From NCBI GenBank assembly GCA_041906785.1, contig JAYRIM010000028.1, positions 35,934-99,933 on the forward strand: 64,000 nucleotides of DNA, in the 5' to 3' direction. Shown here in pieces: positions 10,050 through 63,531 of this stretch. This DNA is from Candidatus Levyibacteriota bacterium. GTDB taxonomy: Bacteria > Patescibacteriota > Microgenomatia > Levybacterales > UBA12049. The number at the start of each line of letters is the position of its first letter. Position 1 is the stretch's first letter. Below the pieces are notes generated by a model that did not search any database, was not told where the DNA came from, and saw nothing but the letters and a program-made list of their open reading frames with translations. The position numbers and the translations under genes were made by a program.

Positions 10050-10847
10050 ATGGTGTATAATAGTTCTGCTAGTCACGAGACTCAAAAAATCATGAAACAA
10101 CCATTCCTTTCAGTAGTTATTCCGTGTTACGATGAAATGGCGAATCTTCGGAAGGGAGTCCTCGATAAAGTTGACCATTTTCTCAAAAAACAACAATATT
10201 CGTACGAAGTTATCATAGTTGATGATGGGTCAACTGATGGAAGTGTTGAATTTATACAAAAATTTATAAAGGAATACCCACATTTTAAGCTTATCGCGAG
10301 CGAGCATTTAGGAAAAGCAGGTGCAGTTACTAAAGGAGTATTAGAGGCGACAGGAGAACTTGTGCTTTTTACAGATATGGATCAAGCTACACCAATAGAA
10401 GAGGTAAAGAAATTGTTACCATTTTTTGACGAAGGATATAGTATCGCAATTGGGGCAAGGAACTCTGGTAAAGAAGGATATCCCTTTTCTAGATTAGCAA
10501 TGCATAAGGGTATGATTCTACTTCGAAAGATACTTGTTGGTCTTCCTGAGATTACTGATACACAGTGTGGATTCAAAATATTTTCAAAGGATGCTGCACA
10601 AAATATATTTGAGAAGGTAAGAAGTATGCATAAAGGGTTTAAAAAGATATCAGGTTCAGCAGTAAAGGCTGGATTCGATGTTGAATTATTATTATTAGCA
10701 CATAAACTTGGCTATAAAATAAAAGAAGTACCGGTTAGCTGGCTCTACGTTGAGAGTAGAAGAGTTAGCCCTTTACGTGATTCTATAGACGGCGTTTTAG
10801 ATCTCATACGGATTAAACTAAACGATCTCACAGGAAAATACGCATAA
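10050..10847 (+). CDS. GT2 polyprenyl-phosphate sugar synthase (Dpm1/GtrB-like) - alternative start at 10092
   Basis: Motifs LSVVIPCYDE ... IIVDDGSTDGS ... DMD ... QCGFK(IF) are typical of GT-A dolichyl/undecaprenyl-phosphate hexose synthases. It is the first gene of the glycosylation locus. Confidence 0.8.
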   Translation: MVYNSSASHETQKIMKQPFLSVVIPCYDEMANLRKGVLDKVDHFLKKQQYSYEVIIVDDGSTDGSVEFIQKFIKEYPHFKLIASEHLGKAGAVTKGVLEATGELVLFTDMDQATPIEEVKKLLPFFDEGYSIAIGARNSGKEGYPFSRLAMHKGMILLRKILVGLPEITDTQCGFKIFSKDAAQNIFEKVRSMHKGFKKISGSAVKAGFDVELLLLAHKLGYKIKEVPVSWLYVESRRVSPLRDSIDGVLDLIRIKLNDLTGKYA

Positions 10848-10849
10848 TT

Positions 10850-12037
10850 ATGAGAATTTTTTCTCAAAAAAAAACAGTCTTAATTTATATTCTTTCACTC
10901 GTAGCTTTATTTCTTTATTCATTCACTCAAATTTCATTAAGTCTTGCCTTAGTTAGGTATCCCGCTATCTATAGTATTCAACAGTGGTTTCAGCATATTG
11001 GATATTTTGATAGACCTTTATCAACATATATATTTTTGGTTATTTTAGTGGGAATGTTTTCTTCTTATTTCTTGTTCCTGAAAAATGCAAAAACTATCTT
11101 TAGAGAAAGAAGTTTAGTATGGAAACTTATATTCGCCACTGCCATTCTTCTCTTTTTTTCATTTCCTGCATTTTCAAACGACATATTTAACTATATTTTC
11201 GATGCGAAAATTTTCACTTTTTATGGAAAAAATCCGTATCAATACAAAGCACTTGATTTTCCAAATGATCCAATGCTCAGTTTTATGCATTGGACACATA
11301 GAACGTATCCTTATGGTCCTGTTTGGTTACTTTTAAGTATTCCTATTTCTTATATAGGGTTTCAGATATTTTTAATAACACTTTTCCTTTTTAAAATTCT
11401 AGCAGTATGCGGGTATTTAGGAAGCATCTATTTTCTTGGAAAAATTATGGAAAAAATTGATAAAGAGAAAGAGATACTTACAATTATTTTCTTTGCTTTT
11501 AATCCTCTAGTTATTATCGAATCTCTTGTTTCTGCTCATCATGATATTATCATGATATTTTTCGCATTAGCTTGCTTGCATTATCTTATTGAAAAGCGTT
11601 ACATAGTTTCGTTTATTTTCTTTCTATTATCAATAGGTATTAAATTCGTCACCATCTTTATGTTCCCTGTATTTTTAGCAATTGTTGTGATGCAGATGCT
11701 AAAAGAAAAAATACCATGGAATGCTTTTATAGGAACCCTGATTCTTTGTATGTTTTTAGGAGTCTTAGGAGCTTCACGATTTTCAGGAAATTTTCAACCA
11801 TGGTATTTGATTTTTGTTGTGCCTTTTATTGCACTTGTAGTAAAGAATGTTTTCTATGCGATTCCAGCAATGATTCTTAGTATAGGTGGGTTACTTACCT
11901 ACGTACCGTATCTCTACTTAGGAAATTGGGATAAACCTGTTCCAGATTATTTGAGAACCATTTATTTGGTATCAACTGGATTCTGCATTGCCTCAATCTT
12001 TCTACTATATAAGAAAAAAAGAGATAGTAAAACATGA
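10850..12037 (+). CDS. Polytopic membrane protein, GT-C-fold / GT87(DUF2029)-like putative glycosyltransferase (paralog group E)
   Basis: 395 aa with about 10 TM segments. N-terminal loop motif NDIFNY..DAK....GKNPYQY and an internal NPLVIIESLVSAHHDI. It is a paralog of 59714..60832 and more distantly of 42115..43389. An A9 tract sits at codons 6-8. Confidence 0.55.
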   Translation: MRIFSQKKTVLIYILSLVALFLYSFTQISLSLALVRYPAIYSIQQWFQHIGYFDRPLSTYIFLVILVGMFSSYFLFLKNAKTIFRERSLVWKLIFATAILLFFSFPAFSNDIFNYIFDAKIFTFYGKNPYQYKALDFPNDPMLSFMHWTHRTYPYGPVWLLLSIPISYIGFQIFLITLFLFKILAVCGYLGSIYFLGKIMEKIDKEKEILTIIFFAFNPLVIIESLVSAHHDIIMIFFALACLHYLIEKRYIVSFIFFLLSIGIKFVTIFMFPVFLAIVVMQMLKEKIPWNAFIGTLILCMFLGVLGASRFSGNFQPWYLIFVVPFIALVVKNVFYAIPAMILSIGGLLTYVPYLYLGNWDKPVPDYLRTIYLVSTGFCIASIFLLYKKKRDSKT

Positions 12038-12085: not shown

Positions 12086-13606
12086 ATGCGCTTTCTTAAA
12101 AAGTACAATCTGCCGTTAGGAATTTTTTTCCTTTTATCACTTCTTTATTTTACTATTCGAATCTCTACATTGCTTCAACTGCCAATTTTTACAGATGAAG
12201 CTATTTATATCAGATGGGCTCAAGTAGGATCACAAGATGCAAATTGGCGGTTTATTTCACTGACTGACGGTAAACAACCTCTCTTTACATGGCTCGTAAT
12301 GCTCACAGTTCGAATTTTTTCTGATCCTCTTTTTGCTGGAAGAATCGTTTCAGTTTTTGCAGGATTTCTCACATTGATTGGGCTTTTTTTCCTTACGTAT
12401 GAACTTTTCAGAAAGTATAAGATAGCTTTGATATCGTCAGTATTATATGTTTTTTACCCGTTTGCCTTAGTGTATGACAGAATGGCTTTATATGATAGTT
12501 CAGTCGGTACATTCGCCGTATGGGGATTATACTGTATTGTGTTGTTGGTGAGATATATTCGGTTGGATGTCGCACTGCTTCTAGGAATAGTTAGCGGGTT
12601 GGGAGTTTTAAATAAAACAAATGGTTTTTTTACAGTGTATTTACTTCCATTCTCATTAATTCTCTTTAACTGGAAAAATGATAAACGAATAGTGCGGTTT
12701 TTAAAATGGTTAGGCTTGAGCATAATTGCAGTAATTCTGACATATGGCATATACGCAATTCTCCGGCTTTCACCGTTCTTCTATATTATTGGGCAGAAAA
12801 ATGCGCTGTTTGTTTTTCCTTTTAAAGAATGGCTTCAACATCCATTCACTTTCTTTTGGGGGAACCTTTGGGCTGGAATGAGGGATTGGTTAATACGATA
12901 TTTTAGTTTTCCATTTTTAATACTTACAGTTATTTCATTTGTGATACAAAGAAAATATTTTAAAGAGAAATTGCTTCTCTTAATATGGTGTACGGTTCCT
13001 TTTTTCGCTCTCGCTTTATTCGGAAATACATTATATCCCAGATATATTTTTTTCATGACGTTGTCGTTACTTCCTTTAGTTGCATTTTCTCTTCATGAAC
13101 TATTTTTTACATTTAGATATAGAATGATAGGATTAGCAGTTACCATTCCTTTTTTACTAATTCCTCTCTGGACATTCCTTATGGTTTTAATTGATTTTCC
13201 ACATTCGCCTATTCCAGCATCTGATAGAGACCAATATAATAATGATTGGCCATCAGGAGTAGGAATTAAAGAATCAATAGCATTTTTAAAAGAGAAAGAG
13301 AGAGGGAACCATATAACGCTCTTTACACAAGGGACATTTGGACTTATGCCATATGCTTATGAAATATATACGAAAGATGAAAGCGATCGTTTTACTATAA
13401 AAGGTATTTGGCCAATTGAACACCAACCACCAAAAGATTTACTAAATTCAGCGAAGAAAGGCTCCACATATGTTGTGTTTTACCAACCATGTGTTGTATG
13501 TGAATTCCCGGGTGCTGCTCCAGATACCTGGCCAATAACAGAAATAAAAAGATATAAAAAAGTGGATGTCGATAGATATTTAATACTTTATAAGGTTAAC
13601 CCATGA
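12086..13606 (+). CDS. ArnT/PMT-like GT-C glycosyltransferase (GT39/GT83 type)
   Basis: 506 aa polytopic protein. The first periplasmic loop carries IFTDEAIYIRWA (the D-E motif of ArnT/PMT-type GT-C enzymes), followed by about 12 TM helices and a soluble C-terminal domain. Confidence 0.7.
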   Translation: MRFLKKYNLPLGIFFLLSLLYFTIRISTLLQLPIFTDEAIYIRWAQVGSQDANWRFISLTDGKQPLFTWLVMLTVRIFSDPLFAGRIVSVFAGFLTLIGLFFLTYELFRKYKIALISSVLYVFYPFALVYDRMALYDSSVGTFAVWGLYCIVLLVRYIRLDVALLLGIVSGLGVLNKTNGFFTVYLLPFSLILFNWKNDKRIVRFLKWLGLSIIAVILTYGIYAILRLSPFFYIIGQKNALFVFPFKEWLQHPFTFFWGNLWAGMRDWLIRYFSFPFLILTVISFVIQRKYFKEKLLLLIWCTVPFFALALFGNTLYPRYIFFMTLSLLPLVAFSLHELFFTFRYRMIGLAVTIPFLLIPLWTFLMVLIDFPHSPIPASDRDQYNNDWPSGVGIKESIAFLKEKERGNHITLFTQGTFGLMPYAYEIYTKDESDRFTIKGIWPIEHQPPKDLLNSAKKGSTYVVFYQPCVVCEFPGAAPDTWPITEIKRYKKVDVDRYLILYKVNP

Positions 13607-15273
13607 TTCGCTATAAAAATCATCTCCTTATTATCATCATATCCTTTATTCCTTTTCTACCGGTATTACTACGTCCGGAATTACCTCATACACATGATGG
13701 ATTAGTTCACTTGCCGCGAATGGCAGCTTTTTATAAAGCATTACTCTCAGGTCATATACCTGTACGATGGGCTGGAGAATTAAATTATGGATATGGAATG
13801 CCTTTATTTAACTTCGTATACCACATGCCTTATATTATTGCCTCATTTTTCCTGTTTTTCGGAAGCGGTTTAGTTTTTGCTTTTAAACTAACGCTTTTAG
13901 TAAGCTATATTCTGTCCGGTTTGGGAATGTATCTTTTCGCTAAAACTTTTTTTGAAGATGAAAAGAAAGGTTTTTTATGTGCAGTTTTTTATCAATTTGC
14001 AACATTCCGATTTGTCGAGTTATTTATTCGAGGGAGTTTTGGAGAGGTATATACATATTCCTTCCTACCATTTATTCTCTATAGTTTATTACAACTGCAG
14101 AGGTATCGATCTTTAAGATACTTTTTACATTCTGTTTTTTTTACAGCATGTTTGATTCTTTCACATAATTCAGTAAGTTTAATCTTTTTTGGCATAAGCT
14201 TCCTTTTTATATTGCTATTTATTAAAAATTTTAGAGATAAAATTATTAGTTTCCTTTCACTTTTTGCTGGGTTACTACTTTCTTTATATTACTGGTTACC
14301 AGCACTTGCCGAACATAAATATACCTATGGTAATTTATTTATGAAAGATCTTTACTTAGAACATTTTGCTCCTATACATCAGTTTTTTCTTCCTAATTTT
14401 ATTAATTCATCAGCTCTGCAAACGGGTGGAATTTCTGTGCAAATAGGATTTTTACATGTTTTTGCTTTACTTTTGGCATTATTTCCAGTTCTTTTACAAG
14501 ATATTCCAGTTGTTAAAAAAAACACGATAAAACTTCTCCGTTTATTCGTAGGGGTTCTTACTGGTATAGCTTTATTTTTTATGTTACCTGTCTCAAAAAT
14601 AGTATGGGGAGAAATAAGTATTCTTAGACAATTCCAATTTCCATGGAGATTTCTTTCTGTTATTGTTTTTTCATCTTCTTTAGCAAGTTTTTTTCTTTTC
14701 TCTATTCCTTTCATTAAAAAGAAAAACTTTTATTTAGGTACAATTTTTTTAGTAGTTATAACAAGTATTTGGTATTGGAACCCCTCCTTAGGATTTGAGA
14801 AAGTGAATGAGTCATATTATTGGAATTTCCCTCTTAATACAACATATTATGGTGAGACAGACGTTATTTGGTCAGCCGGTCCAGCAAAATCATATCCGAA
14901 AAAAAGAATCGAAATAATCAGCGGAAAGGGCACTGTTAATGACTTTATTAAAGAAAATCACTGCCAGACATTCACGGTTAATGCAAAAACTGATCTTTCA
15001 ATATTGAGTCATACACAATATTTTCCAGGTTGGGAGGTGTCTATTGACGGAATAAGACATACAAACGCAGTACAATTCCAAGATCCGAATCACAGAGGAG
15101 AAATCGTCTTCTCTGTACCGAAAGGTAAGCACGCCGTGCGGTTACAATTTACTGAAACGAAAATAAGGTATATCGCAGATTCAATATCCGCCGTGATTTT
15201 TTCACTGTTTGTACTTTTTCTTGTATTTCATAAACACTTAGAGAAACGTTTTTCAAAACTATATGGGAAGTAA
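13603..15273 (+). CDS. GT-C-like membrane protein, PF10131 'PTPS-related' type (paralog group B)
   Basis: 556 aa. N-terminal motif PHTHDGLVHLPRM...GHIPVRW...LNYGYGMPLFNFVYHMPY. The C-terminus is YFPGWEVSIDG...KGKHAVRLQF plus a TM anchor. The start overlaps the previous stop (ATGA). Confidence 0.6.
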   Translation: MIRYKNHLLIIIISFIPFLPVLLRPELPHTHDGLVHLPRMAAFYKALLSGHIPVRWAGELNYGYGMPLFNFVYHMPYIIASFFLFFGSGLVFAFKLTLLVSYILSGLGMYLFAKTFFEDEKKGFLCAVFYQFATFRFVELFIRGSFGEVYTYSFLPFILYSLLQLQRYRSLRYFLHSVFFTACLILSHNSVSLIFFGISFLFILLFIKNFRDKIISFLSLFAGLLLSLYYWLPALAEHKYTYGNLFMKDLYLEHFAPIHQFFLPNFINSSALQTGGISVQIGFLHVFALLLALFPVLLQDIPVVKKNTIKLLRLFVGVLTGIALFFMLPVSKIVWGEISILRQFQFPWRFLSVIVFSSSLASFFLFSIPFIKKKNFYLGTIFLVVITSIWYWNPSLGFEKVNESYYWNFPLNTTYYGETDVIWSAGPAKSYPKKRIEIISGKGTVNDFIKENHCQTFTVNAKTDLSILSHTQYFPGWEVSIDGIRHTNAVQFQDPNHRGEIVFSVPKGKHAVRLQFTETKIRYIADSISAVIFSLFVLFLVFHKHLEKRFSKLYGK

Positions 15274-17659
15274 ATATTTTGGTTTTATTTTTTCGTGTTT
15301 ATTTGTATTTTCTCTTTTTTATAAAACTTTTTTATTTGGCTTGTTACCGTTCCCTGGAGATCTATTAATTGCTGAATATTCTCCATGGAAATATGACGCA
15401 CATGTAGGTTATAGCCCGGGTTCGTATCCCAATAAAGCTCAATATTTTGATTCGCTTCGCCAAATGTATCCATGGAGAATGTTAGGAATTACTTCTTTCT
15501 CACAAGGTTTTATTCCTCTTTGGAATCCATATAATTTTTCGGGAGCGCCTTTATTAGCAAATTTTCAATCCGCTGTTTTTTATCCACTTAACATCGTTTT
15601 TTTAATTTTATCTGAACATTATGCATGGACAGGTTTGATTATTTTACAAATATTTCTAGCTCTCTGGTTTACGTATTTGTATGCAAAAGAAATTGGTCTA
15701 TCTCATTTTGGTTCCATGTTTTCTGCTATTAGTTTTGTATGTTCGTCATTCGTAATCGTTTGGCTTGAATATAATACGATTGTTCACGTAATACTTTGGC
15801 TTCCGCTTATCTTATTGTCTATTGAAAATCTTGTAAAGGCTTTTACAAAACGATGGGCTTTTGTTTTACTTTTCTCTCTCAGCTCTTCGATTTTGGCAGG
15901 ACATCCACAAGTCTTTTTTTATCTTTATCTATTTACCTTCATATACTTTATTTGGAAACTGAAATCACTTCATAAACATATACGTAATGAAACAGCTACA
16001 TTAACCTGTTTGCTTTTACCCCTAGGACTGACAGCTTTTCAAATACTACCCGGTATTGAACTTACTTTACTCTCTGCAAGAAGTAGTCATGATATCTCAA
16101 CATTATTAACAAAAATTCTTATTCAACCATGGCAGCTTATTATGGCTTTCGTTCCTGATTTTTTTGGAAACCCCGCGAACAGAAATTATTATATTTCAGA
16201 TACATATATCGGAAAAATGTTTTCAATTGGAATTATTCCATCTTTTTTTGCTTTTTATGCATTATTTACTAAAAGACGTGGTTATATTCAGCTTTTTTTC
16301 ATTACTACTATTATTATTCTTCTTCTTACTGTACATTCACCATTTACATGGGTACTGTATGCTTTTCCAATTCCATTTTTTTCTGCAAGCTCACCAACGC
16401 TCTCCTTATTTCTCATTGTTTTTTCCACAGCTTTATTAAGCGGTTTTGGAGTAGATTTATGGTTACGAGAAAAACAAACTGTTAAAATCTTTTTAAAACG
16501 CTTTTCTCAATTACCGTTATTTTTTCTCGGAATCTGGATGTATCTTACGTTTGCAAAAACTGGGATAGTTGATTCACTCTTACCTGAACAATTATCAATC
16601 ACAATACGAAATTTTCTTTTAATATCGGCAATATTATTTTTTGCGTTTATTTTGGTATTCATATCTTCATTCTTTTTACGATATAAAAAAATATTTTTTT
16701 TGGTATTACTGTTTATTTCATTAGGTGAAAGTTTTCGAAATTTTCATAAGTTTAATCCTTTTGTACCTGAACCATTAATTTTTCCTAAAAACGAAATATT
16801 TACATATTTACAAAGTACAGCAGCTACTTCGCGATTTTATGGATATGGCGCTGCAAATATCCAAGCTAACTTTGGTACGTATTATCATAATTTTTCACCT
16901 GACGGCTATGATCCGTTATATCCTAAGTCGTACGGGGAATTTATAGCGTTATCGAGAGATGGAGCTTTTCCTAATCGGTTTACTACTGAAACACGTTCAG
17001 ATGCGATGCTTGCACCTGGATTTGGTGATGAGGATTTCACAGAGAATACCTATCGTATAAAAGTTATGAATCTTTTAGGAGTTTCATATATTCTTGATAG
17101 AGAAGAAAATGGCAGTACTGCCAAACGTTTTCCTCCAGGACAATTCCCAATTGTATATAAAAATAATAATTGGATAATATATAAGAATGTTGATTCTCTA
17201 CAAAGAGCTTTTTTTGCATCTTCATATCAACTATATAAAAATGAAAAGGACTTCGAAAAAATATTTTTTTCAAAAAATTTTGATTACCAAAAAACAATCC
17301 TTTTAGAAAAACCGCTAGGAGAAAAGGCTCAGTTTGCTATTGGCAAAGCTGAGATTAGCACGTATTCACCAAATAAAATAATTATAAAGACAGAAAATAC
17401 TGGTGATGGTCTACTTTTTCTCTCCGATACATTTTTTCCCGGATGGAAAGCGTTTATCGATGAAAAAGAGACGGTAATTCATAAAGCAGATTTTACTTTT
17501 CGGGCTGTGTTAGTTCCTCCAGGTAGACACTCTGTGCGATTTATATATGATCCTGATTCATTTAAAATTGGAATAGTTATCTCTCTGTTAAGTATGATTA
17601 TCGCTTCAATATTTCTATTCTTCAAGAAAAAAGTATCATATAATGGAACTGATCTATGA
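15263..17659 (+). CDS. YfhO-family large membrane protein (GT-C-like; putative glycosyltransferase, paralog group C)
   Basis: 798 aa. N-terminal loop LWNPYNFSGAPLLANFQSAVFYPLN. C-terminal beta-rich domain LFLSDTFFPGWKAFIDEKET...ADFTFRAVLVPPGRHSVRF, then a TM anchor. Confidence 0.65.
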   Translation: MGSKYFGFIFSCLFVFSLFYKTFLFGLLPFPGDLLIAEYSPWKYDAHVGYSPGSYPNKAQYFDSLRQMYPWRMLGITSFSQGFIPLWNPYNFSGAPLLANFQSAVFYPLNIVFLILSEHYAWTGLIILQIFLALWFTYLYAKEIGLSHFGSMFSAISFVCSSFVIVWLEYNTIVHVILWLPLILLSIENLVKAFTKRWAFVLLFSLSSSILAGHPQVFFYLYLFTFIYFIWKLKSLHKHIRNETATLTCLLLPLGLTAFQILPGIELTLLSARSSHDISTLLTKILIQPWQLIMAFVPDFFGNPANRNYYISDTYIGKMFSIGIIPSFFAFYALFTKRRGYIQLFFITTIIILLLTVHSPFTWVLYAFPIPFFSASSPTLSLFLIVFSTALLSGFGVDLWLREKQTVKIFLKRFSQLPLFFLGIWMYLTFAKTGIVDSLLPEQLSITIRNFLLISAILFFAFILVFISSFFLRYKKIFFLVLLFISLGESFRNFHKFNPFVPEPLIFPKNEIFTYLQSTAATSRFYGYGAANIQANFGTYYHNFSPDGYDPLYPKSYGEFIALSRDGAFPNRFTTETRSDAMLAPGFGDEDFTENTYRIKVMNLLGVSYILDREENGSTAKRFPPGQFPIVYKNNNWIIYKNVDSLQRAFFASSYQLYKNEKDFEKIFFSKNFDYQKTILLEKPLGEKAQFAIGKAEISTYSPNKIIIKTENTGDGLLFLSDTFFPGWKAFIDEKETVIHKADFTFRAVLVPPGRHSVRFIYDPDSFKIGIVISLLSMIIASIFLFFKKKVSYNGTDL

Positions 17660-32247: not shown

Positions 32248-32275
32248 TGTCCAGTATACTGGACAGCACTGTGCG

Positions 32276-35274: not shown

Positions 35275-35541
35275 TTTTCTTCTTAAATGTTTAAACCAAC
35301 CTGTAATTTCATGCACTGTTAAGCGGTGTTTTGCGAATCTAAAGAGATAAATAATCTCAAGAAGCCCTACAGTATTAAAAATGAGCATAGGAATAAACCA
35401 ATATTTGTTACCTTCTTTTGCTGCTCGCCATAATGCTAAACCTTTCCAAATTGAGGCCCAGATGAGGAGAAGATAGATAAGCGTATAGTTTGGCTGTTGA
35501 GTCATACTTCTCATCATACCAGCCTTGCTTCGCATATGCAA
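35266..35541 (-). CDS. Small conserved-looking 2-TM membrane protein (about 75-91 aa)
   Basis: It fills a 300-bp gap between YfhO and GT4 genes. Two hydrophobic helices flank WKGLALWRAAKEGNKYWF, and the C-terminus is basic. I vaguely recall a widespread small-protein family with this pattern but cannot confirm it. Confidence 0.45.
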   Translation of the reverse strand: MHMRSKAGMMRSMTQQPNYTLIYLLLIWASIWKGLALWRAAKEGNKYWFIPMLIFNTVGLLEIIYLFRFAKHRLTVHEITGWFKHLRRKSK

Positions 35542-35573
35542 GTGTAAGAAAACCTGGTAAAATAATTTTAATC

Positions 35574-40633: not shown

Positions 40634-40634
40634 A

Positions 40635-42113: not shown

Positions 42114-42114
42114 T

Positions 42115-51418: not shown

Positions 51419-51421
51419 ACT

Positions 51422-57468: not shown

Positions 57469-58205
57469 TTCTCGCAACATTTAATGAAGAAAAGAATTTA
57501 GCAGAGTGTTTGGAGTCTGTAAGGGATATCGCAGATGAAATCGTAATAGTTGATGGGTCCTCAAATGACAACACAGTCGACATTGCCAAACAGTATAAAG
57601 CTAAGGTACTTGTCACTGATAACCCTGAAATTTTTCACATTAATAAACAAAAAGCCATAGATATGGCTACGAAAGACTGGATACTTCAACTAGATGCTGA
57701 CGAACGGGTTACGCCAGATCTTGCTGAAGAAATACATTCTCACATCTCAATTCTCAATTCTCAATTCAATGGCTTTTGGATTCCGAGAAAGAATTGGTTT
57801 CTTGGGCGTTATTTAATGAAAGGTGGACAATATCCGGATTATACGTTACGTTTATATAGAAAAAATAAGGGTAAATTACCCCAAAAAGATGTTCATGAAC
57901 AGGCCATAGTAGATGGAAAAGTAGGATATTTGGAGCATCCCCTTATTCATATTGCTGATCCGGAATTTAAAAGATATTTACTTCGATTTAACCGCTATAC
58001 AGGTATTCTTGCAACACATATAAAAAGTGAGAAAAAAAATATTTTAACTCCTTTTAAATATATATTTCTATTACCGATATGGTGGTTTATGCTAACTTAC
58101 GGTAGACATAAAGGGTTTATGGATGGATGGCAAGGTTTTGTATTTTCCTTCTTTTCAGCGGCTAGATTTCCTGTATCATATATAAAGTACTTAATAAGAA
58201 AATAG
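57444..58205 (+). CDS. GT2 (GT-A) glycosyltransferase (paralog of 29753 and 32276)
   Basis: Motifs LSVVLATFNEE ... IVVDGSSNDNT ... LQLDADE ... QYPDYTLRLYRKN. The start is at ATG 57444 or 57450. The tracked ORF begins earlier inside the upstream gene. Confidence 0.7.
   Translation: MYMATLSVVLATFNEEKNLAECLESVRDIADEIVIVDGSSNDNTVDIAKQYKAKVLVTDNPEIFHINKQKAIDMATKDWILQLDADERVTPDLAEEIHSHISILNSQFNGFWIPRKNWFLGRYLMKGGQYPDYTLRLYRKNKGKLPQKDVHEQAIVDGKVGYLEHPLIHIADPEFKRYLLRFNRYTGILATHIKSEKKNILTPFKYIFLLPIWWFMLTYGRHKGFMDGWQGFVFSFFSAARFPVSYIKYLIRK
57745..57765 (+). repeat. Perfect heptanucleotide tandem repeat (tctcaat)x3 plus a partial fourth unit, inside the GT2 coding sequence
   Basis: Read directly: tctcaat tctcaat tctcaat tcaat. 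It encodes ..SILNSQFNG... The unit length is not a multiple of three. Confidence 0.7.
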
Positions 58206-58206
58206 T

Positions 58207-59193
58207 ATGGCAAATATTTTAATTACCGGAGGAGCAGGGTATATAGGCAGTTTTATGGTAAAGCGTTTACTCGATGATGGTCATAGAGTCACCGTAATAG
58301 ATTCTCTAGAGCGCGGGCATAAAAATGCAATAGATAGCAGAGCAATTCTCAAGATTGGTAATATATTAGATAAAAAATTTTTAAATGAGGTATTTACTGA
58401 GCAGAGCTTTGATGCAATATTGCATTTTGCAGCCTTTATTTCTGTAAATGAATCTACACAACGGCCAGACGATTATTTTAGAAATAACACCTTTGGTAGT
58501 TTTTGTCTTTTTGAACAAATGCGTATACACAATGTTAAACGAATTATTTTTTCCTCAACTGCTACTGTATATGGTATACCTAGAAAAATTCCGATTTCTG
58601 AAGATCACCCAAAAAACCCGGAAAATCCATATGGCGAAAGTAAATTATTAGTTGAACAAGGTTTAGAGTGGTATCATAAAATGTTCGGAATTAGTTTTGC
58701 AGTTTTACGTTATTTTAATGCTGCTGGTGCTGCTCTAGATGGAAGTATGGGAGAAGAGCATTTACAAGAAACCCATTTAATACCGAATGCTATTCAAGCT
58801 GCTATAAAAAAGAAAGAATTTGTTCTCTATGGTACTGATTACAATACTATTGATGGAACAGCTGTCAGAGATTATATTCATGTACTAGATTTAGTTGAAG
58901 CACATATACTTGCCTTAGGAAAGTTGCAAAAAGAAGAAGGATCATTTATCTACAATGTAGGCACTGGAAATGGTTTTACTAATAAGGAAGTTATAGAAAT
59001 GGTAAAGAAAGTTTCAAAAGTTGATTTTCCGGTTAGGCTTGAAAAAAGACGTGAAGGTGATTCAGAAGCTACCGTAGCAGATTCAACAAAAATTAAAAAT
59101 GAACTGGGATTTAAGCCAAGCTATTCTGATCTCGACACTATTATTACCTCTGCATGGAAATGGCATACAAACAAGTTAAAAGTTAAAAGTTAA
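58207..59193 (+). CDS. galE: UDP-glucose 4-epimerase (NAD-dependent SDR epimerase)
   Basis: 328 aa. N-terminal Rossmann ILITGGAGYIGS and catalytic YGESK (YxxxK). The length and overall conservation are typical of GalE. Confidence 0.8.
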   Translation: MANILITGGAGYIGSFMVKRLLDDGHRVTVIDSLERGHKNAIDSRAILKIGNILDKKFLNEVFTEQSFDAILHFAAFISVNESTQRPDDYFRNNTFGSFCLFEQMRIHNVKRIIFSSTATVYGIPRKIPISEDHPKNPENPYGESKLLVEQGLEWYHKMFGISFAVLRYFNAAGAALDGSMGEEHLQETHLIPNAIQAAIKKKEFVLYGTDYNTIDGTAVRDYIHVLDLVEAHILALGKLQKEEGSFIYNVGTGNGFTNKEVIEMVKKVSKVDFPVRLEKRREGDSEATVADSTKIKNELGFKPSYSDLDTIITSAWKWHTNKLKVKS

Positions 59194-59195
59194 AA

Positions 59196-59717
59196 ATGAA
59201 AAGTTATTTTCTTCTCATTTATTTATTTATATTACTTTCTTTTCCACCCCGAATATTTGCAGAATCAACATATGTTCTTCCTTATCCCTCAGCTATGCCG
59301 GGAAGCTTTTGGTATAAATTAAATTATCTTCATGAGTTTTTTGATCGGTTTTGGTATTTTGGTAATTTTTCGCAATTTACATATAGTCTTAAACAGGCAG
59401 ATAAATATTTAGTTGAATCAAAAACATTATTTGAGTATGGACAATATCTTCTCGCATACAGGGCATTAGAAGCATCAAATAAATATTTTAAAGAAGCTCC
59501 ATTTTTTTTATTACGTGCTGAGAAAGAGAATAAAGATATTTCTGAGAAATTCTCATTACTTAAAAATGCCGCTGAAAAACATGCAGAAGTTCTGGGGGAA
59601 ATAAAAGAAGATGTTCCCGCAAACTTTTTATGGAAACCAGAAAAAGAGGAACAGACTTATTTAAGGATACATGAGCTTATTGATAATTCTATCAATGTAC
59701 GTCTGAATTGTTTATGA
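59196..59717 (+). CDS. Secreted hypothetical protein (173 aa) with signal peptide
   Basis: Signal peptide MKSYFLLIYLFILLSFPPRIFA-EST. Largely alpha-helical, Lys/Glu-rich. No family assigned. Confidence 0.5.
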   Translation: MKSYFLLIYLFILLSFPPRIFAESTYVLPYPSAMPGSFWYKLNYLHEFFDRFWYFGNFSQFTYSLKQADKYLVESKTLFEYGQYLLAYRALEASNKYFKEAPFFLLRAEKENKDISEKFSLLKNAAEKHAEVLGEIKEDVPANFLWKPEKEEQTYLRIHELIDNSINVRLNCL

Positions 59718-60832
59718 AAAAAAAACTATTATTTTTTTATATTGTTTTTTTGTTAAGCATTCTCCTTTTTTCCTATCTTTTTATTGATTATAATTTACCA
59801 TATTTTTCTTTTTTCTATACAGGCTTCTATACTAACTTTAGACAAGTAACAACATTACTGTTTTGTCTATTTTTAGGTATTGGACAAATAGTTTATATAC
59901 ATTTTTTTCGTTACTTTAGTAGAGATAATTCTAAAAAAAAATACCTTCGTATAGCATTCTTCACGATAGTATTACTTGCTTTTAGTTATCCAGCGATAGT
60001 GTCATATGATATTTTTAATTATATAGCCACTGCGAAAATAACTTTCTTCTATCATGAGAATCCTTATATCGTTATGCCAAATGAATTTTTGGGAGATCCG
60101 ATGCTCCTTTTTATGCACGCACCAAATAAAACTGCATTATATGGACCCATTTGGATATTACTGACTGGAATACCATATGTGATAGGAAATAGCTATTTTA
60201 TTTTAACTTTGTTTCTTTTTAAATTTATTGTTATTTTATTTTTATTTCTTACTTTATTTGTTATCTACAAATTAACAGAAGATATATATCCTGTCTTACT
60301 TTTTACATTTAATCCTCTGGTTATTTTGGAGACAGTTATCAGCGGACATAATGACATTGTCATGATGAGCTTAGCGCTATCGGGTTTTTATTTATTAAAG
60401 AAAAACAAGGTAGCATTAGGACTTTTGATTTTACTATTATCAATATTAATAAAGTATGCAACATTAATACTCCTTCCGATTTATGTATTTTATGCATATA
60501 GAAAAATCACTAAAAAAGAAATTCATTGGCATATCGTTTTTTCTTACTGTTTTTCCGCTATGCTTTTCATGTTTTTTATCTCGACTTTTCGTGAGGAAAT
60601 ATATCCATGGTATGCTGTTTGGTTTTTTGTATTTACTGTTCTAACAAAAAATAAAATGATGTTATACTTCTCCTTCATTCTTTCTTTTAGTGTACTTTTT
60701 CGTCATGTACCTTATATGTATTGGGGTATGTATGACCAAAGAACAGCAATCGTCAAAACAATTATTACTTTTGTACCAGTGAGTACATATTGCTTTTATG
60801 CATTCTTTAAAAAATTTCAAACAAAAAAGTAA
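59714..60832 (+). CDS. Polytopic membrane protein, GT87/DUF2029-like putative GT-C glycosyltransferase (group E; paralog of 10850)
   Basis: Motifs VSYDIFNYIATAKITFFYHENPY ... NPLVILETVISGHNDIVMM parallel those of 10850..12037. The ATG at 59714 overlaps the previous stop (ATGA). An A9 tract sits at codons 2-4. Confidence 0.55.
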   Translation: MKKKLLFFYIVFLLSILLFSYLFIDYNLPYFSFFYTGFYTNFRQVTTLLFCLFLGIGQIVYIHFFRYFSRDNSKKKYLRIAFFTIVLLAFSYPAIVSYDIFNYIATAKITFFYHENPYIVMPNEFLGDPMLLFMHAPNKTALYGPIWILLTGIPYVIGNSYFILTLFLFKFIVILFLFLTLFVIYKLTEDIYPVLLFTFNPLVILETVISGHNDIVMMSLALSGFYLLKKNKVALGLLILLLSILIKYATLILLPIYVFYAYRKITKKEIHWHIVFSYCFSAMLFMFFISTFREEIYPWYAVWFFVFTVLTKNKMMLYFSFILSFSVLFRHVPYMYWGMYDQRTAIVKTIITFVPVSTYCFYAFFKKFQTKK

Positions 60833-62498
60833 ATATCCTCAAGCAATCATACTTTTTCTACAGAACAAGTATTTATTATTATCCTTATTGTTATCTTTTA
60901 TTGGTTTGTATCCACTTACTCATACTGGTTTACATCCGACACATGATGGAGAATACCATATAATACGATTCTATGAATTTTATAGATCTTTTTCAGAAGG
61001 TAATATCTATCCCCGCTGGGCTTCAGATTTAAATGCAGGATTTGGAGTACCTTTATTTAATTATGTTTATCCATTACCGAACTATATAGCAAGCGTCCTG
61101 CATGTATTAGGATTTAGTTTCATAGATGCTTTTAAACTTAACATGATGCTAGCAACTCTTATTGGATGTCTTTTTTTCTTTTATTTTACACGTTATTTTT
61201 TTGATGATCTTATTGCGCTAGTAGGAGCTGTTTTTTACTCTTTCGCTCCTTATCGCTTCGTAGATATTTATGTACGAGGATCGGTCGGAGAAGTTTGGGC
61301 ATTAGCATTTTTACCTGGAATTTTATTTTTTCTATTAAAATCTACACGTGACAACAGGAAATTCATTATTCCTGGAGGCATCATTTTTTCACTATTAATT
61401 TTTTCGCATAATATTCTGGCAATGCTCTCCAGTATTTTTATTGCCTGTTATGGAACAGTACTCATTCTAGAACAGAAGCAGAAGTTGAGGTCATGTATAA
61501 CTGTACTATTTTTCTTTTTAATTGGGTTAAGTATTTCTGCAATTTTTTGGCTTCCAGCATTAGGTGAAACATCATATGTGAAAGGGCTTGAAATTTACGA
61601 CGTGAGACAAAGTTTTGTAGAAGCTTATCAATTACTTTTTCCTTCATGGGGAACAGGATTTTCTTCGAAAGATAGCGGGAATGAGATGTCTCTGCAGATT
61701 GGATTTATTCACACAGTAATTACTGTTTTTTGTATTTTTTTATTCTTCTTAAAAAGAAGATCGGGAAAAGAACGGCTAACAATCATTTTTATGATTCTAA
61801 CTCTTAATTTTTCAATTTATATGATGCTCTCTACATCATCCTTTATTTGGGAGTCTGTTCCTCTGTTAGGTTTCGTCCAATTTCCATGGAGAATTCTAAG
61901 CATCGTTATTTTTACTACATCCTTTCTAGCGGCTTATTCTTTAACTTTTTTTTCTTCAAAACAAAAAACTATAGTATCTTATATATATATTTTATTATTG
62001 ATATTGACTACAATCTCCTATACAAAACCTGCGTATTATCATATGAGGGATGATGGGTATTACATACGTCGCCCAAACTTTATTCGAGGTACAAACAGCA
62101 TCGGAAATCTTTTCAATACGATTTGGATAGATGAAATTCCCAGAAATAAAAAAAAAGAGATTACATTTTCAGCTAAAGGTTTGGTGCTAAACAGCGTAGA
62201 AAAAACTCAACAAAAAACGTATACGGTTTACCTGGAACAGTCAGGTGATATTACTTTTCCTATTGCTTATTTTCCTGGGTGGAGTATATATGTCGACAGA
62301 ACACGATATCCAACTCAAATAACAACGGATGGTTTGGTAAAAACGCATATTCCAGCAGGCAAGCATAGTATTGAAGTCGTATTTCTTGATACAATTATTA
62401 GAAAGATAGCAAAAAGTTGGACATTAATCACAATTCTTTTTTTAACAATTATTACATTTAAGTTATTTGTTCTAAAAAAAAATGAACGTAGCAATTGA
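60798..62498 (+). CDS. GT-C-like membrane protein, PF10131 'PTPS-related' type (group B)
   Basis: 566 aa. Motif LHPTHDGEYHIIRF...GNIYPRWASDLNAGFGVPLFNYVYPLPNY. C-terminus YFPGWSIYVDRTRYPTQI...AGKHSIEVVF. Confidence 0.6.
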   Translation: MHSLKNFKQKSKYPQAIILFLQNKYLLLSLLLSFIGLYPLTHTGLHPTHDGEYHIIRFYEFYRSFSEGNIYPRWASDLNAGFGVPLFNYVYPLPNYIASVLHVLGFSFIDAFKLNMMLATLIGCLFFFYFTRYFFDDLIALVGAVFYSFAPYRFVDIYVRGSVGEVWALAFLPGILFFLLKSTRDNRKFIIPGGIIFSLLIFSHNILAMLSSIFIACYGTVLILEQKQKLRSCITVLFFFLIGLSISAIFWLPALGETSYVKGLEIYDVRQSFVEAYQLLFPSWGTGFSSKDSGNEMSLQIGFIHTVITVFCIFLFFLKRRSGKERLTIIFMILTLNFSIYMMLSTSSFIWESVPLLGFVQFPWRILSIVIFTTSFLAAYSLTFFSSKQKTIVSYIYILLLILTTISYTKPAYYHMRDDGYYIRRPNFIRGTNSIGNLFNTIWIDEIPRNKKKEITFSAKGLVLNSVEKTQQKTYTVYLEQSGDITFPIAYFPGWSIYVDRTRYPTQITTDGLVKTHIPAGKHSIEVVFLDTIIRKIAKSWTLITILFLTIITFKLFVLKKNERSN

Positions 62499-63531
62499 TA
62501 TTTCACCATTAGAAACAGGGCATAAAGTTAGAGGGACTGGATTCTATTTATTTCATTTGAAAGAAGCATTATTGAAGTATCACTCTGATATTTCATACGC
62601 GTTTTTCAACAAAGAAAATGAAATTAGTTTAGACACAGATATAGTACATTATCCATATTTTGAACCGTTCTTTAAAACATTGCCTCTTTTTAAAAGAAAA
62701 AAAACAATAGTAACTGTGCATGATTTAACTCCACTTGTTTTTCCCCAACACTTTCCTGCAGGAATAAAAGGTAAATTTAAATGGCTATATCAAAAAAAAA
62801 TGCTTCAGCAAGTAGACGCAGTTATTACTGATTCAGAGTCATCAAGAAAAGATATTATCCGTATTGCAGGTGTTTCAGAGAAAAAAATTAGTGCTATTTA
62901 TCTTGCTGCTGATGAAACATTTACATCCTTACCAAATAAGGAAGTTGCTACTATTCGAAAAAAGTATGATCTTCCTGAACAATTTATTCTCTATGTCGGA
63001 GATGCAACGTGGAATAAAAATCTACCGAGACTAATGCAAGCTGTAAAAAAAACATCACATCAACTTATTCTTGTAGGAAAAGTCTTCGAGCAGGAAAATA
63101 TTGACTTGCATAATGATTGGAATAAAGATCTACTACAAGCTAGGAAAATGCTTCATGAATGCACTAACATTAGAACATTGGGTTTTGTGTCGTCTATTGA
63201 TCTCCCAGGTATATATAATGCCGCAACAATGCTCGCTATGCCATCTTTATATGAAGGGTTTGGATTACCCATTTTGGAAGCGATGCAAAGTGGATGTCCG
63301 GTTTTAACTTCACGTGCTGGTTCACTTGCTGAAGTTGCAGAAGAAGCTGCCTTTTACATTGATCCCTTTTCTATTGAAAACATTGTAAGTGGCATTGAGC
63401 AAATAATGGAGAAAGAAACATTACGAAAACAACTCTCTGAGAAAGGATTAAACCAAGCAAAGAAATTTTCCTGGAAACGTACCGCAGGGCAAACAGTAGA
63501 TATATATAAACAGGTAATAGATAGTAAGTAA
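62482..63531 (+). CDS. GT4 (GT-B fold) glycosyltransferase
   Basis: 349 aa. C-terminal PSLYEGFGLPILEAMQSGCPVL (the E-X7-E region). The N-terminal domain is typical of GT4. Confidence 0.75.
   Translation: MNVAIDISPLETGHKVRGTGFYLFHLKEALLKYHSDISYAFFNKENEISLDTDIVHYPYFEPFFKTLPLFKRKKTIVTVHDLTPLVFPQHFPAGIKGKFKWLYQKKMLQQVDAVITDSESSRKDIIRIAGVSEKKISAIYLAADETFTSLPNKEVATIRKKYDLPEQFILYVGDATWNKNLPRLMQAVKKTSHQLILVGKVFEQENIDLHNDWNKDLLQARKMLHECTNIRTLGFVSSIDLPGIYNAATMLAMPSLYEGFGLPILEAMQSGCPVLTSRAGSLAEVAEEAAFYIDPFSIENIVSGIEQIMEKETLRKQLSEKGLNQAKKFSWKRTAGQTVDIYKQVIDSK

Follow-up and report, generated by a model that had tools for sequence, protein, structure and literature searches.

Mycobacteria and corynebacteria assemble LM, LAM and arabinogalactan from Ppm1- and DprE-derived donors with PimE, MptA, MptB, MptC, EmbA/B/C and AftA-D, and lipomannan is the substrate of MptA, MptB and PimE. 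Their ca. 15 to 20 GT-C enzymes, dominated by the Emb and Aft families and encoded at scattered sites of a genome exceeding 4 Mb, each form one defined extracytoplasmic linkage from polyprenyl-phosphate sugars. Protein O-mannosylation by PMT (GT39) together with Dpm1/Ppm1 usually involves one paralog. In the multi-component (three-component) systems of Gram-positive bacteria (CsbB/GtcA/YfhO, GtlA/GtlB, GacI-J/GacK/GacL, CsdAB/CD/EF), a GT-A enzyme makes C55-P-sugar that a YfhO- or PMT_2-type GT-C transfers outside the membrane, with one to three GT-C enzymes per genome in scattered pairs (Rismondo, Gillis & Gründling 2021, PMC8035078; Rismondo 2018, PMC5836110). Their YfhO and PMT_2 enzymes have been characterised on LTA, WTA, rhamnan and SCWP, and variants with a soluble GT-A and Wzx exist (PMC8035078). 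For CPR bacteria, a glycosylated S-layer was suggested (Kantor 2013, PMC3812714) and "29 glycosyl transferases" were reported in one Microgenomates genome (Kadnikov 2020, PMC7143001); as far as it is searchable, this literature does not mention GT-C enzymes, their family make-up, a single conserved super-locus or a polyprenyl-phosphate-sugar logic.

Positions 10050 to 63531 of the window, the whole 64,000-nucleotide stretch analysed, carry 39 tightly packed genes that we call g01 to g39 in their order along it (Table 1; ORF listing, Pfam scans and all-against-all BLASTP), with an operon-like arrangement and overlaps of 1 to 40 bp. We reproduced the count of an earlier note on this DNA, by which 24 of them encode polytopic membrane glycosyltransferases of GT-C type, which fall into five groups (nine PMT/PMT_2, three F-x-x-D-Q, five PTPS_related, four YfhO and three MptA_B/GT87-like); together, these candidates take up 75% of the 53.5 kb. 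The remaining genes encode nine GT2 enzymes (four DPMS/GtrB/ArnC-like and five others), two GT4 enzymes, one Wzx, GalE and two small uncharacterised proteins (g15 and g36). This agrees with the earlier inventory except that its RmlC-like cupin lies outside the end it had set, and its statement that almost every gene is a glycosylation component left g15 and g36 unmentioned. At least 5.7 kb more of the locus follow past the window end, with RmlC and an SDR dehydratase/epimerase downstream of g39 and a fifth DPMS-like GT2 just beyond the window. What is new is a single GT-C super-locus of more than 53 kb in a tiny-genome CPR bacterium that recurs across related lineages; we found no description of such a super-locus in the searchable literature, within which the earlier failure to tie it to a described system still holds.

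Table 1. Genes of the GT-C super-locus, with positions in the window.
Gene	Assignment	Position	Strand	Matches and remarks
g01	Short soluble GT2, DPMS/GtrB/ArnC-like, candidate polyprenyl-phosphate sugar synthase	10050..10847	+	PF00535 101 bits
g02	GT-C, MptA_B family	10850..12037	+	
g03	GT-C, PMT_2/PMT type	12086..13606	+	PF13231 42.4 bits, PF02366 39.3 bits; DE motif
g04	GT-C, PTPS_related	13603..15273	+	PF10131 40.7 bits; T-H-D-G motif
g05	GT-C, YfhO	15263..17659	+	PF09586 66.6 bits
g06	GT-C, PMT type	17656..19290	+	PF02366 31.6 bits; DE motif
g07	GT-C, PTPS_related	19287..20837	+	PF10131 35.4 bits
g08	GT-C, PMT_2	20821..22419	-	PF13231 35.1 bits
g09	GT-C, PMT_2	22423..23985	-	PF13231 26.9 bits
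g10	GT-C, PMT/PMT_2	24035..25717	+	PF02366 40.2 bits, PF13231 39.7 bits
g11	GT-C, PTPS_related	25754..27538	+	PF10131 39.1 bits
g12	Short soluble GT2, DPMS-like	27557..28288	+	PF00535 80.5 bits
g13	Wzx/MOP-type flippase	28293..29756	+	PF13440 119 bits
g14	GT2 (cytoplasmic)	29753..30670	+	PF00535 91 bits
g15	Membrane-anchored orphan protein	30680..31336	+	No family match
g16	GT2, rhamnosyltransferase-like	31336..32247	+	PF00535 63 bits; TIGR01556 75.9 bits, under cut-off
g17	GT2	32222..33040	+	PF00535 68 bits
g18	GT-C, YfhO	33037..35274	+	PF09586 63.6 bits
g19	GT4	35490..36644	+	PF00534 74.5 bits
g20	GT-C, YfhO, conserved core position	36641..38953	+	PF09586 51.6 bits; orthologs in 28 related loci
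g21	GT2	38962..39912	+	PF00535 80 bits; orthologs in 37 related loci
g22	Short soluble GT2, DPMS/AglJ-like	39914..40633	+	PF00535 122.9 bits; AglJ model 135.9 bits, under cut-off
g23	GT-C, PMT_2-like, F-x-x-D-Q group	40635..42113	+	PF13231 29.4 bits
g24	GT-C candidate, GT87-like	42076..43389	+	PF09594 23.1 bits, below gathering score 25
g25	GT-C, YfhO	43300..45699	-	PF09586 95.5 bits
g26	GT2, DPMS/PpgS-like, one C-terminal TM	45754..46518	+	PF00535 79.3 bits; PpgS 74 and AglJ 77.6 bits, under cut-off
g27	GT-C, PMT_2	46508..48106	+	PF13231 38 bits
g28	GT-C, PMT/PMT_2	48066..49745	+	PF02366 47.2 bits
g29	GT-C, PMT_2	49742..51418	+	PF13231 35.1 bits
g30	GT-C, PMT_2-like, F-x-x-D-Q group	51422..52711	+	PF13231 29.0 bits
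g31	GT-C, PMT_2/PMT	52674..54329	+	PF13231 46.4 bits
g32	GT-C candidate, F-x-x-D-Q group	54317..55831	+	PF13231 23.6 bits, below gathering score 26.1
g33	GT-C, PTPS_related	55828..57468	+	PF10131 44.5 bits
g34	GT2, conserved core	57387..58205	+	PF00535 85.7 bits; orthologs in 51 related loci
g35	UDP-glucose 4-epimerase GalE	58207..59193	+	TIGR01179 398.5 bits, above equivalog cut-off 262.3
g36	DUF5667 helical-bundle protein, signal- or TM-anchored	59196..59717	+	PF18915 26.9 bits, gathering score 27
g37	GT-C, MptA_B family	59708..60832	+	PF26314 (precomputed annotation); 31% identical to g02
g38	GT-C, PTPS_related, C-terminus YfhO-like	60798..62498	+	PF10131 47.2 bits, PF09586 45.6 bits
g39	GT4	62482..63531	+	PF00534 92.5 bits
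	RmlC-type dTDP-sugar isomerase	63612..64000	+	Truncated by window end; PF00908 on full gene in L082

In the HMM searches that the earlier note had suggested, 20 of the 24 GT-C proteins scored above the gathering thresholds of Pfam's GT-C models, and alignments revealed the acidic catalytic loop-1 motif (aspartate) in 23. With the local Pfam library, five of the 24 candidates had a sub-threshold match or none; the MptA_B-type group lacking a local match clearly has a GT-C fold, that of g02 matching PimE and AftA/B/D, while BLAST links g32 to g23 (7e-11) and g24 to g37 (9e-6), the latter two with an x-D-I loop motif in common. Superfamily links by hhalign connect PMT with PTPS (95.6%), PMT with the F-x-x-D-Q group (97.5%) and PTPS with YfhO (98.9%), and the F-x-x-D-Q group (FAYDQ, FGWDQ or FGFDQ) is itself PMT_2-like. 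Likeness to characterised GT-C enzymes was marginal in PDB profile searches (ArnT, E 0.05), which gave no match to them for four of the groups. Among PMT-type members, g03 is the most divergent with a still intact DE motif, and g09 has KE instead of DE in loop 1, with the aspartate replaced, and is possibly inactive or altered in function.

The Dpm1-like identity proposed for g01, g12, g22 and g26 is borne out by their profile, whose best PDB match is P. furiosus DPMS (5mlz, 3e-37), followed by GtrB and ArnC; g12 also aligns over its full length to AglJ and dolichyl-P-hexose transferase models, under their cut-offs. Three of the four lack a membrane anchor by TM prediction, including g01 with no predicted TM helix. 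That each heads a run of GT-C genes is true of three, with runs of ten behind g01 and seven behind g26, but g12 directly precedes the Wzx gene and cytoplasmic glycosyltransferases. The Wzx protein (g13) also matches NCBIfam models of MOP flippases and O-glycosylation flippases under their cut-offs.

A search anchored on g29 recovered 80 related loci in other species of Levy-, Gottesman-, Woese-, Curtiss- and Roizmanbacteria, all of which (80/80) carry 2 to 13 GT-C genes within ca. 20 kb and among which gene order recurs. Full-length related loci (n = 44) have a median of nine GT-C genes, and 20 of these 44 contain all five families. Nearly every paralog has a nearer ortholog in another species than its nearest paralog within the window: g28 is the most widely conserved (70/80 loci, median 54% identity), g06 has matches beating its best paralog in 66/80 loci, g04 has a 49% ortholog in a Gottesmanbacteria locus, and orthologs of g22 and g32 occur in 39 and 36 related loci. 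By these comparisons, the locus is characteristic of Microgenomates, with conserved synteny, and no single-genome oddity. As the earlier note had supposed of a small-genome host, the organism belongs to a small-genome Patescibacteria lineage of Levybacteria-like Microgenomates, its own genome likely being near 1 Mb. Its judgement that the paralogs are old also holds: they are 22% to 43% identical within the window (all-against-all BLASTP; closest pair g08/g29 at 43%), and DNA repeats within the locus reach 97 nt and 79% identity at most, so that there are no recent duplications. Related loci also contain further GT-C-like families that are absent from this window.

With the Gram-positive systems, in which one synthase can serve several GT-C enzymes, the locus shares the proposed logic of a C55-P-sugar synthase and a GT-C enzyme, the adjacency of their genes and the combination of soluble GT-A and Wzx-type flippase known from GacI/K/L. 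It differs from them in assembling 24 GT-C enzymes of five families with four to five synthases in one locus, in its CPR host, in having no GtrA-type flippase and in that the window gave no genes for a teichoic-acid or rhamnan backbone. Its scale is similar to that of mycobacterial LM, LAM and arabinogalactan assembly, with which it has the MptA/MptB and GT87 (PimE-type) families (PF26314, PF09594) and the fold of g02 in common, though here the genes form one continuous block in a genome of probably about 1 Mb, PMT_2, PTPS_related and YfhO dominate, and there is no sequence-level orthology past family membership. PMT (GT39) O-mannosylation shares the loop-1 DE motif, the PMT/PMT_2 Pfam matches and DPMS-like synthases adjoining the transferases, but PMT-model matches here are weak (24 to 47 bits) and overlap generic PMT_2 matches, the proteins have 430 to 560 aa and no MIR domain, and nine to twelve paralogs stand in place of one. 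Heavy investment in glycosyltransferases is also what the CPR reports describe (Kantor 2013, PMC3812714; Kadnikov 2020, PMC7143001), with polysaccharides, glycoproteins or a glycosylated S-layer as possible products.

We favor the interpretation that the locus is a cell-surface glycan factory, a multiplied multi-component transmembrane glycosylation system, as reasonably probable, and are largely confident that its GT-C enzymes use polyprenyl-phosphate sugars; that the main acceptor is a glycopolymer or lipoglycan rather than protein has about an even chance. In such a pathway, g01, g12, g22, g26 and the fifth synthase past the window end would charge polyprenyl phosphate with single sugars at the inner membrane face, the nucleotide sugars coming in part from GalE and dTDP-rhamnose-type enzymes. 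The lipid-linked sugars would be flipped over the membrane by Wzx-type proteins, which are the sole flippase candidates since the GtrA type is missing, and each of the 24 GT-C enzymes would then add a sugar extracytoplasmically at a particular acceptor position. A lipid-linked oligosaccharide, serving as primer or repeat unit, is probably the product of the cytoplasmic GT2 and GT4 enzymes together with Wzx; its elongation and branching by the GT-C enzymes would yield a heteropolysaccharide or lipoglycan anchored in the wall or membrane, by a logic like that of mycobacterial LM, LAM and arabinogalactan assembly and of the Gram-positive systems that glycosylate teichoic acids and rhamnans. Since the GT-C paralogs are ancient, have their own orthologs across Microgenomates classes and in 23 of 24 cases keep the loop-1 aspartate, we read them as non-redundant steps or specificities of one pathway. 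The pathway cannot be closed from the window sequence because Pfam scans found no genes there for an acceptor, initiating phosphoglycosyl transferase, Wzy, LCP ligase or GtrA flippase. The lack of a membrane anchor in three of the four DPMS-like enzymes and the marginal likeness to characterised GT-C enzymes also speak against this reading.

S-layers and many pili have been reported for CPR cells, and the main role of the GT-C enzymes might instead be glycosylation of an S-layer protein, type IV pilins or secreted Ser/Thr-rich proteins, as in actinobacterial Pmt/Ppm1 O-mannosylation, streptococcal GT-C activity on disordered regions or TfpW-type pilin arabinosylation. Twelve of the 24 match PMT/PMT_2 models with a DE or D-x loop motif, and PMT-family matches are equally compatible with protein O-glycosylation; some three-component systems are known to modify proteins (PMC12041528, PMC11127046), and the S-layer suggestion of Kantor 2013 (PMC3812714) and the conserved secreted protein g36 within the locus point the same way. 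However, g36 is a short helical bundle free of Ser/Thr-rich tracts, the window encodes no candidate acceptor (S-layer protein, pilin or Ser/Thr-rich protein), and characterised MptA_B/GT87 and YfhO relatives target lipoglycans and teichoic acids. We regard a mainly protein-directed role as rather unlikely, given also neighbors typical of polysaccharide loci (Wzx, GT2/GT4, GalE and rhamnose-pathway genes) and 24 conserved, distinct enzymes that far exceed the needs of known protein O-glycosylation systems.

For either type of acceptor, the paralogs might also be a menu of alternative decorating enzymes for variable surface antigens or phage/host receptors, with subsets differing by species or condition, instead of sequential steps. 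GT-C numbers vary between species from 4 to 13 per ca. 21 kb, a spread that suits a variable decoration set no less than a fixed assembly line; moreover, g28, g29, g20 and g33 alone are near-universal, with other paralogs in few loci, relatives have extra GT-C-like families missing here, and surface-glycan genes are often hypervariable under phage pressure (PMC9426551). Against this, the window showed no phase-variation signatures (invertible repeats, long simple repeats, recent duplications or pseudogenes), its long co-directional runs are translationally coupled, suggesting joint expression, and the paralogs are old and conserved with no rapid turnover, making such a menu a doubtful explanation. 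An assembly or binning chimera, or membrane proteins that are not glycosyltransferases (e.g., transporters), is effectively refuted: Logan, a second assembler, has a contig break within g32 (54787-54812), but its two contigs match the window at 100% identity and share 26 bp at their ends, tetranucleotide correlation stays at 0.96 to 0.99 along the window and 80 independent genomes have the same gene order, while the Pfam scores and the fold of the MptA_B-type group outweigh the five candidates with weak or missing local matches.

The two small proteins differ in their conservation. No Pfam/NCBIfam match and no homolog among the 80 related loci was found for g15. A fold search with the AF2 model of g36 (pLDDT 88) gave no informative match; its orthologs are 50% to 58% identical, and it is a conserved partner of the following gene, g37.

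The locus from 10050 to 63531 consists of 39 open reading frames (ORFs; numbered g01 to g39 in order) of at least 173 aa each, and the ORF listing leaves non-coding DNA nearly absent: neighboring genes overlap by 1 to 40 bp or lie a few bases apart, with a widest gap of 215 bp. All but three genes are on the plus strand (36 plus, 3 minus), and the 24 candidate GT-C glycosyltransferases make up 75% of the 53.5 kb. Grouping these polytopic membrane proteins by Pfam scans and all-against-all BLASTP reproduced exactly the five groups, with their counts, of an earlier note made from the sequence alone. Its overall observation of a glycosylation super-locus with about 24 GT-C paralogs is confirmed, and its interpretation is supported with minor corrections. 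At the convergent pair g24 (+) and g25 (-), the 3' ends share 90 bp, while the spacers of the divergent pairs g09/g10 and g25/g26 measure just 49 and 54 bp and would need to hold promoters for both directions.

Features of the locus, its surroundings and related loci (window coordinates unless a related locus is named)
Feature	Genes or number	Position	Remark
PMT/PMT_2-type (9)	g03, g06, g08, g09, g10, g27, g28, g29, g31		g09 at 22423-23985, minus strand
PMT_2-like with F-x-x-D-Q motif (3)	g23, g30, g32		
PTPS_related, PF10131 (5)	g04, g07, g11, g33, g38		
YfhO, PF09586 (4)	g05, g18, g20, g25		
GT87/MptA_B-like (3)	g02, g24, g37		
GT2 (9)	g01, g12, g14, g16, g17, g21, g22, g26, g34		
GT4 (2)	g19, g39		
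Wzx/MOP flippase	g13		
GalE	g35		NCBIfam equivalog TIGR01179, 398.5 bits (cut-off 262.3)
Small DUF5667 protein	g36	59196-59717	
Orphan membrane-anchored protein	g15	30680-31336	
Shared 3' ends	g24/g25	43300-43389	
Divergent spacers	g09/g10; g25/g26	23986-24034; 45700-45753	
NUDIX hydrolases	2	540-1241; 9438-9989	upstream
ORFs without family match	3	1238-2479; 4512-5309; 8367-8909	upstream
KAS-III-like protein	1	2988-4148	upstream
tRNA-Glu(CTC)	1	7352-7425	upstream, minus strand
DUF218, metallophosphoesterase, serine hydrolase		within 1-10000	upstream
RmlC-type dTDP-sugar isomerase	1	63612-64000	cut by window end
Second Wzx, fifth DPMS/PpgS-like GT2, SDR dehydratase/epimerase, GT4, GT2		in L082	beyond window
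Inverted PTPS_related-YfhO-PMT block		about 1-5600 in L044, L045, L049, L063, L072	related loci
Examples of families absent from the window		L051 2272-4248; L065 17354-18535; L031 2600-4024; L043 278-1651; L036 5346-5978	related loci

The left boundary at 10050 is real, because the genes upstream of it are unrelated to glycosylation. On the right, the same organism's locus goes on past the window end (window 63612-64000, then 8826-14407 of L082, the record that carries the continuation). The earlier note had counted an RmlC-like cupin within the locus; a gene of RmlC type does exist, but as the cut ORF just outside the end at 63531. The orphan g15 was considered for this role and rejected, as it has no family match and the true RmlC begins at 63612. 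A chimeric assembly is excluded: two Logan contigs produced by another assembler (run SRR26835457) are 100% identical to 39742-54812 and 54787-64000, a 285,396-bp NCBI contig likewise carries proteins of the locus, the tetranucleotide correlation with the whole window is 0.96 to 0.99 in every 8-kb block, and GC stays at 0.29 to 0.37 throughout the window. The Logan assembly is broken inside g32, where its two contigs overlap by 26 bp (54787-54812) and where strain variation or a change of coverage is possible. An exact protein look-up found a record for GalE (g35) and none for g38 and g39.

Whether the membrane proteins might instead be transporters or unrelated polytopic proteins can be answered from Pfam, BLAST, profile-profile comparison and a conserved loop acid, all of which point to GT-C enzymes. 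Each of the 24 has 6 to 12 hydrophobic segments by Kyte-Doolittle scan (an approximate count, made with no dedicated TM predictor; GT-C proteins have about 8 to 13 TM helices), and 20 of them pass the Pfam gathering score of curated GT-C family models (PMT, PMT_2, PTPS_related, YfhO). These include g03, g06, g10, g27, g28 and g31, with more than 22.7 bits to PF02366 (PMT) plus the DE motif, and the four YfhO proteins, which match PF09586 over its full length at a threshold of 28.5 (g05, 66.6; g18, 63.6; g20, 51.6; g25, 95.5 bits). Just below their gathering scores are g24 (GT87, PF09594; 23.1 bits, gathering score 25) and g32 (PMT_2; 23.6 bits, gathering score 26.1), both linked by BLAST to their group-mates. 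No match in the local Pfam copy was found for g02 and g37; in the protein collection, precomputed annotation assigns both to PF26314 (MptA_B_family) and some homologs of 50% to 62% identity to PF09594, and the three-dimensional GT-C core is clear for this MptA_B-type group.

The first extracytoplasmic loop retains its acidic residue in 23 of the 24 proteins, as DE in the PMT group (8 of 9), D-Q in the FxxDQ group (3 of 3), (H/D)-D in the PTPS group (5 of 5), D-x-x-x-Q in the YfhO group (4 of 4) and x-D-I in the MptA_B/GT87 group (3 of 3). In g09, DE has changed to KE, and the neighboring GYNAYS/GKDEYG motifs, which the other eight PMT-group proteins keep, are lost. This protein may be catalytically dead or altered in function. 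MIR and PMT_4TMC Pfam domains were found on no locus protein, and the PMT-type proteins are 430 to 560 aa long; bacterial Pmt is likewise not known to carry MIR, and its absence therefore excludes a eukaryote-type PMT architecture only. Profile-profile alignment with hhalign joined PMT to PTPS (95.6%), PMT to FxxDQ (97.5%) and PTPS to YfhO (98.9%), which unites these four groups in one superfamily, while PMT against MptA_B was not significant (4%) and the MptA_B group is thus tied to the rest by fold only. Searched against PDB sequences, the PMT-group profile gave only marginal matches (OST subunit, E 0.002; ArnT, 0.05) and the profiles of the other four groups gave none, so closeness to a solved enzyme is unusable for inferring the acceptor. 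Taken one by one, the genes are new and distant members of known families.

Candidates for the donor side are four short GT2 proteins resembling dolichyl-phosphate mannose synthase (DPMS), namely g01, g12, g22 and g26 (239 to 265 aa, mutual identity 23% to 31% by BLASTP), which score 79 to 123 bits against PF00535. Their joint profile matches Pyrococcus DPMS (5mlz) best, at E 3e-37 over residues 4-233 and thus near full length, followed by GtrB (5e-24) and ArnC (6e-24). The NCBIfam models of AglJ, dolichyl-phosphate hexose transferase and PpgS align at full length, though none of the four proteins reaches an equivalog cut-off. PpgS is one of the soluble or partner-dependent synthases, and a C-terminal TM anchor is predicted for g26 (one helix) and for none of the other three. 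The four proteins resemble soluble or partner-dependent GT-A types such as GacI, and Gram-positive variants of this kind also work with a Wzx-type flippase (PMC8035078). Two such proteins, g13 and a second one just past the window end, are the candidate flippases here; a GtrA-like gene is absent from the window, and the intergenic gaps in the locus, of at most 215 bp, leave no room for one.

Three of the synthase genes are encoded together with GT-C genes (g01 with the ten of g02-g11, g22 with the three of g23-g25 and g26 with the seven of g27-g33), an adjacency that recurs in most related loci among the best 80 of at least 581. The generalization in the earlier note that each Dpm1-like gene heads a run of GT-C genes is therefore three-quarters right, with the exception of g12, which leads into Wzx and cytoplasmic GT2 and GT4 genes. 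The window contains no initiating phosphoglycosyl transferase, Wzy, LCP ligase or teichoic-acid genes, and neither the window nor L082 has a match to Bac_transf, Glycos_transf_4, Wzy_C or Wzz; unlike a Wzx/Wzy-dependent polysaccharide locus, this one has only Wzx of the set.

The locus is a conserved hallmark of Microgenomates and not peculiar to one genome. Motifs for the g29 subfamily, resting on five PMT paralogs (all nine together lack conserved stretches), were scanned against GTDB with a single genome for each species and gave at least 581 relatives, and the ORFs of the best 80 loci were scanned with HMMs built from the gene groups of the window. Candidatus Levybacteria/Levyibacteriota lead these 80 (identity up to 56%), followed by Gottesman-, Woese-, Curtiss- and Roizmanbacteria; every one of these lineages belongs to the Microgenomates within the Patescibacteria/CPR. 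Many carrier records (L006, L008, L015-L017 and others) are titled "uncultured Gammaproteobacteria bacterium" and one "Bacteroidia", titles that seem to be placeholders or taxonomic errors. Each of the best 80 loci has 2 to 13 GT-C ORFs around the anchor; in the 44 with full 10-kb flanks the median is 9 (range 4 to 13), with all five families present in 20. The window, having 12 GT-C genes in the same frame, is therefore typical and not extreme.

A recurrent gene order (GT4, YfhO, GT2, DPMS-like GT2, one or more PMT and one or more FxxDQ-type genes, then PTPS, GT2, GalE, DUF5667, MptA_B, PTPS and GT4) corresponds to window positions 35490-63531, and the upstream Wzx-GT2-GT2-GT2 block is also found in some Levybacteria and Gottesmanbacteria loci. 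The PTPS-YfhO-PMT block g04-g05-g06 (13603-19290) adjoins this core upstream in Gottesmanbacteria-type loci, where it is inverted as a unit and thus points to an ancient inversion or transposition. For nearly every GT-C protein of the window, some homolog in another species is closer than any paralog within the window, as for g28 (best ortholog 63%, best paralog 34%; orthologs in 70 of the 80 loci). Repeats in the DNA of the locus are conserved coding motifs of at most 97 nt and 79% identity, and a search for direct, inverted and tandem repeats as signatures of phase variation or recent duplication turned up only such motifs and short AT-rich chance matches. Since orthologs beat paralogs and recent DNA duplications are absent, the expansions predate the divergence of these Microgenomates lineages, which bears out their old age as proposed before.

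What the sequence shows is a conserved, operon-like locus of DPMS-type synthases, Wzx-type flippases, nucleotide-sugar enzymes, cytoplasmic GT2 and GT4 enzymes and 24 GT-C proteins, in all but one of which (g09) the catalytic loop is intact. In the pathway that we propose, the DPMS-like synthases would make several different polyprenyl-phosphate monosaccharides that would be flipped across the membrane, each GT-C enzyme would then attach one sugar to an acceptor outside the cytoplasm, always at a defined position, and the cytoplasmic glycosyltransferases together with Wzx would contribute a primer or repeat unit carried on a lipid. We see about an even chance that the main acceptor is a glycopolymer or lipoglycan. 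It is favored because glycopolymers and lipoglycans are the acceptors of characterized YfhO, PMT_2 and MptA/B/PimE enzymes, because the neighboring genes are of the kind seen in polysaccharide loci, and because a set of 24 conserved enzymes without redundancy points to many different linkages; glycosylation of proteins such as S-layer proteins or pilins by the GT-C enzymes is a serious rival, though on balance an unlikely one. The same rather low likelihood applies to the paralogs being a menu of alternative decorations: the GT-C copy number of 4 to 13 between species speaks for it.

In scale and in its MptA/B- and PimE-like families, the locus comes closest to the assembly of mycobacterial LM, LAM and arabinogalactan. 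To the best of our knowledge, there is no other case of two dozen contiguous GT-C genes of five families with class-level conservation in genomes of ca. 1 Mb. The Gram-positive multi-component transmembrane glycosylation systems (PMC8035078, PMC5836110), and three-component systems generally (PMC11127046), follow the logic proposed here, which the locus would multiply roughly tenfold. The novelty is in the system-level arrangement, and the class of mechanism is already known. Our full-text literature search, with subscription journals mostly outside its reach, found no papers on GT-C expansions in CPR bacteria, for which a richness in glycosyltransferases has been remarked in general terms (Kantor 2013, PMC3812714; Kadnikov 2020, PMC7143001).

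Contigs of relatives reach 0.99 to 1.2 Mb, suggesting a genome of about 1 Mb of which the locus would be ca. 5%. The genomes of CPR/Patescibacteria are reduced, and these bacteria probably live in attachment to other cells, yet to our knowledge almost nothing is known of their surface chemistry. This organism and, judging by synteny, many relatives in five or more named candidate lineages of Microgenomates spend ca. 55 to 60 kb on an extracytoplasmic glycosylation machine, which implies an elaborate glycan essential to their lifestyle. Tentatively, and with more doubt than confidence, we suggest that Microgenomates might own a lineage-defining envelope glycoconjugate, built on the outer side of the membrane by a GT-C pathway that would be the largest contiguous one known (more than 20 enzymes of at least five families, with more in relatives, in ca. 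5% of a genome of ca. 1 Mb), as an independent counterpart of mycobacterial LAM/arabinogalactan biosynthesis and probably central to the attachment of these ultra-small cells to hosts and phages or to their recognition by them. Should the glycan be a lipoglycan or wall polysaccharide, large-scale GT-C glycan assembly would have a second, independent example beside that of the mycobacterial envelope.

Beyond the first reading, the analysis adds the status as a Microgenomates hallmark, the GT-C fold of the group without local Pfam match and the extension past the window. For glycobiologists and CPR researchers the locus is striking and, in organisms that are uncultivated, offers concrete experimental handles: g28, g29, g20-g22 and g33-g38 can serve as marker genes for finding and comparing the trait, and the paired synthase and GT-C genes are suited to heterologous reconstitution. 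Five poorly characterized GT-C families (among them PTPS_related, MptA_B-like proteins outside actinobacteria and the FxxDQ group) also gain a context that suggests function.

Related loci carry further families that are absent from the window, including a polytopic family of ca. 650 aa without Pfam match (20 loci), a PIG-V-like Mannosyl_trans2 (8 loci), DUF2079 and a weak Alg6_Alg8-like match, besides a SAM methyltransferase (16 loci) and a second Wzx. The orphan g15 (218 aa, with an N-terminal hydrophobic anchor) lies between GT2 genes that adjoin directly in loci such as L033, and it has no match in Pfam or NCBIfam; none of the 80 related loci contains a homolog of it. The DUF5667 protein g36 is modeled as a helical bundle, for which structure comparison gave no informative match. 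Its sequence has an invariant YVLPYP..MPG motif after a signal or anchor sequence, and with identities of 50% to 58% it is better conserved than the majority of the enzymes. Its gene is always flanked by GalE and the gene of MptA_B type.
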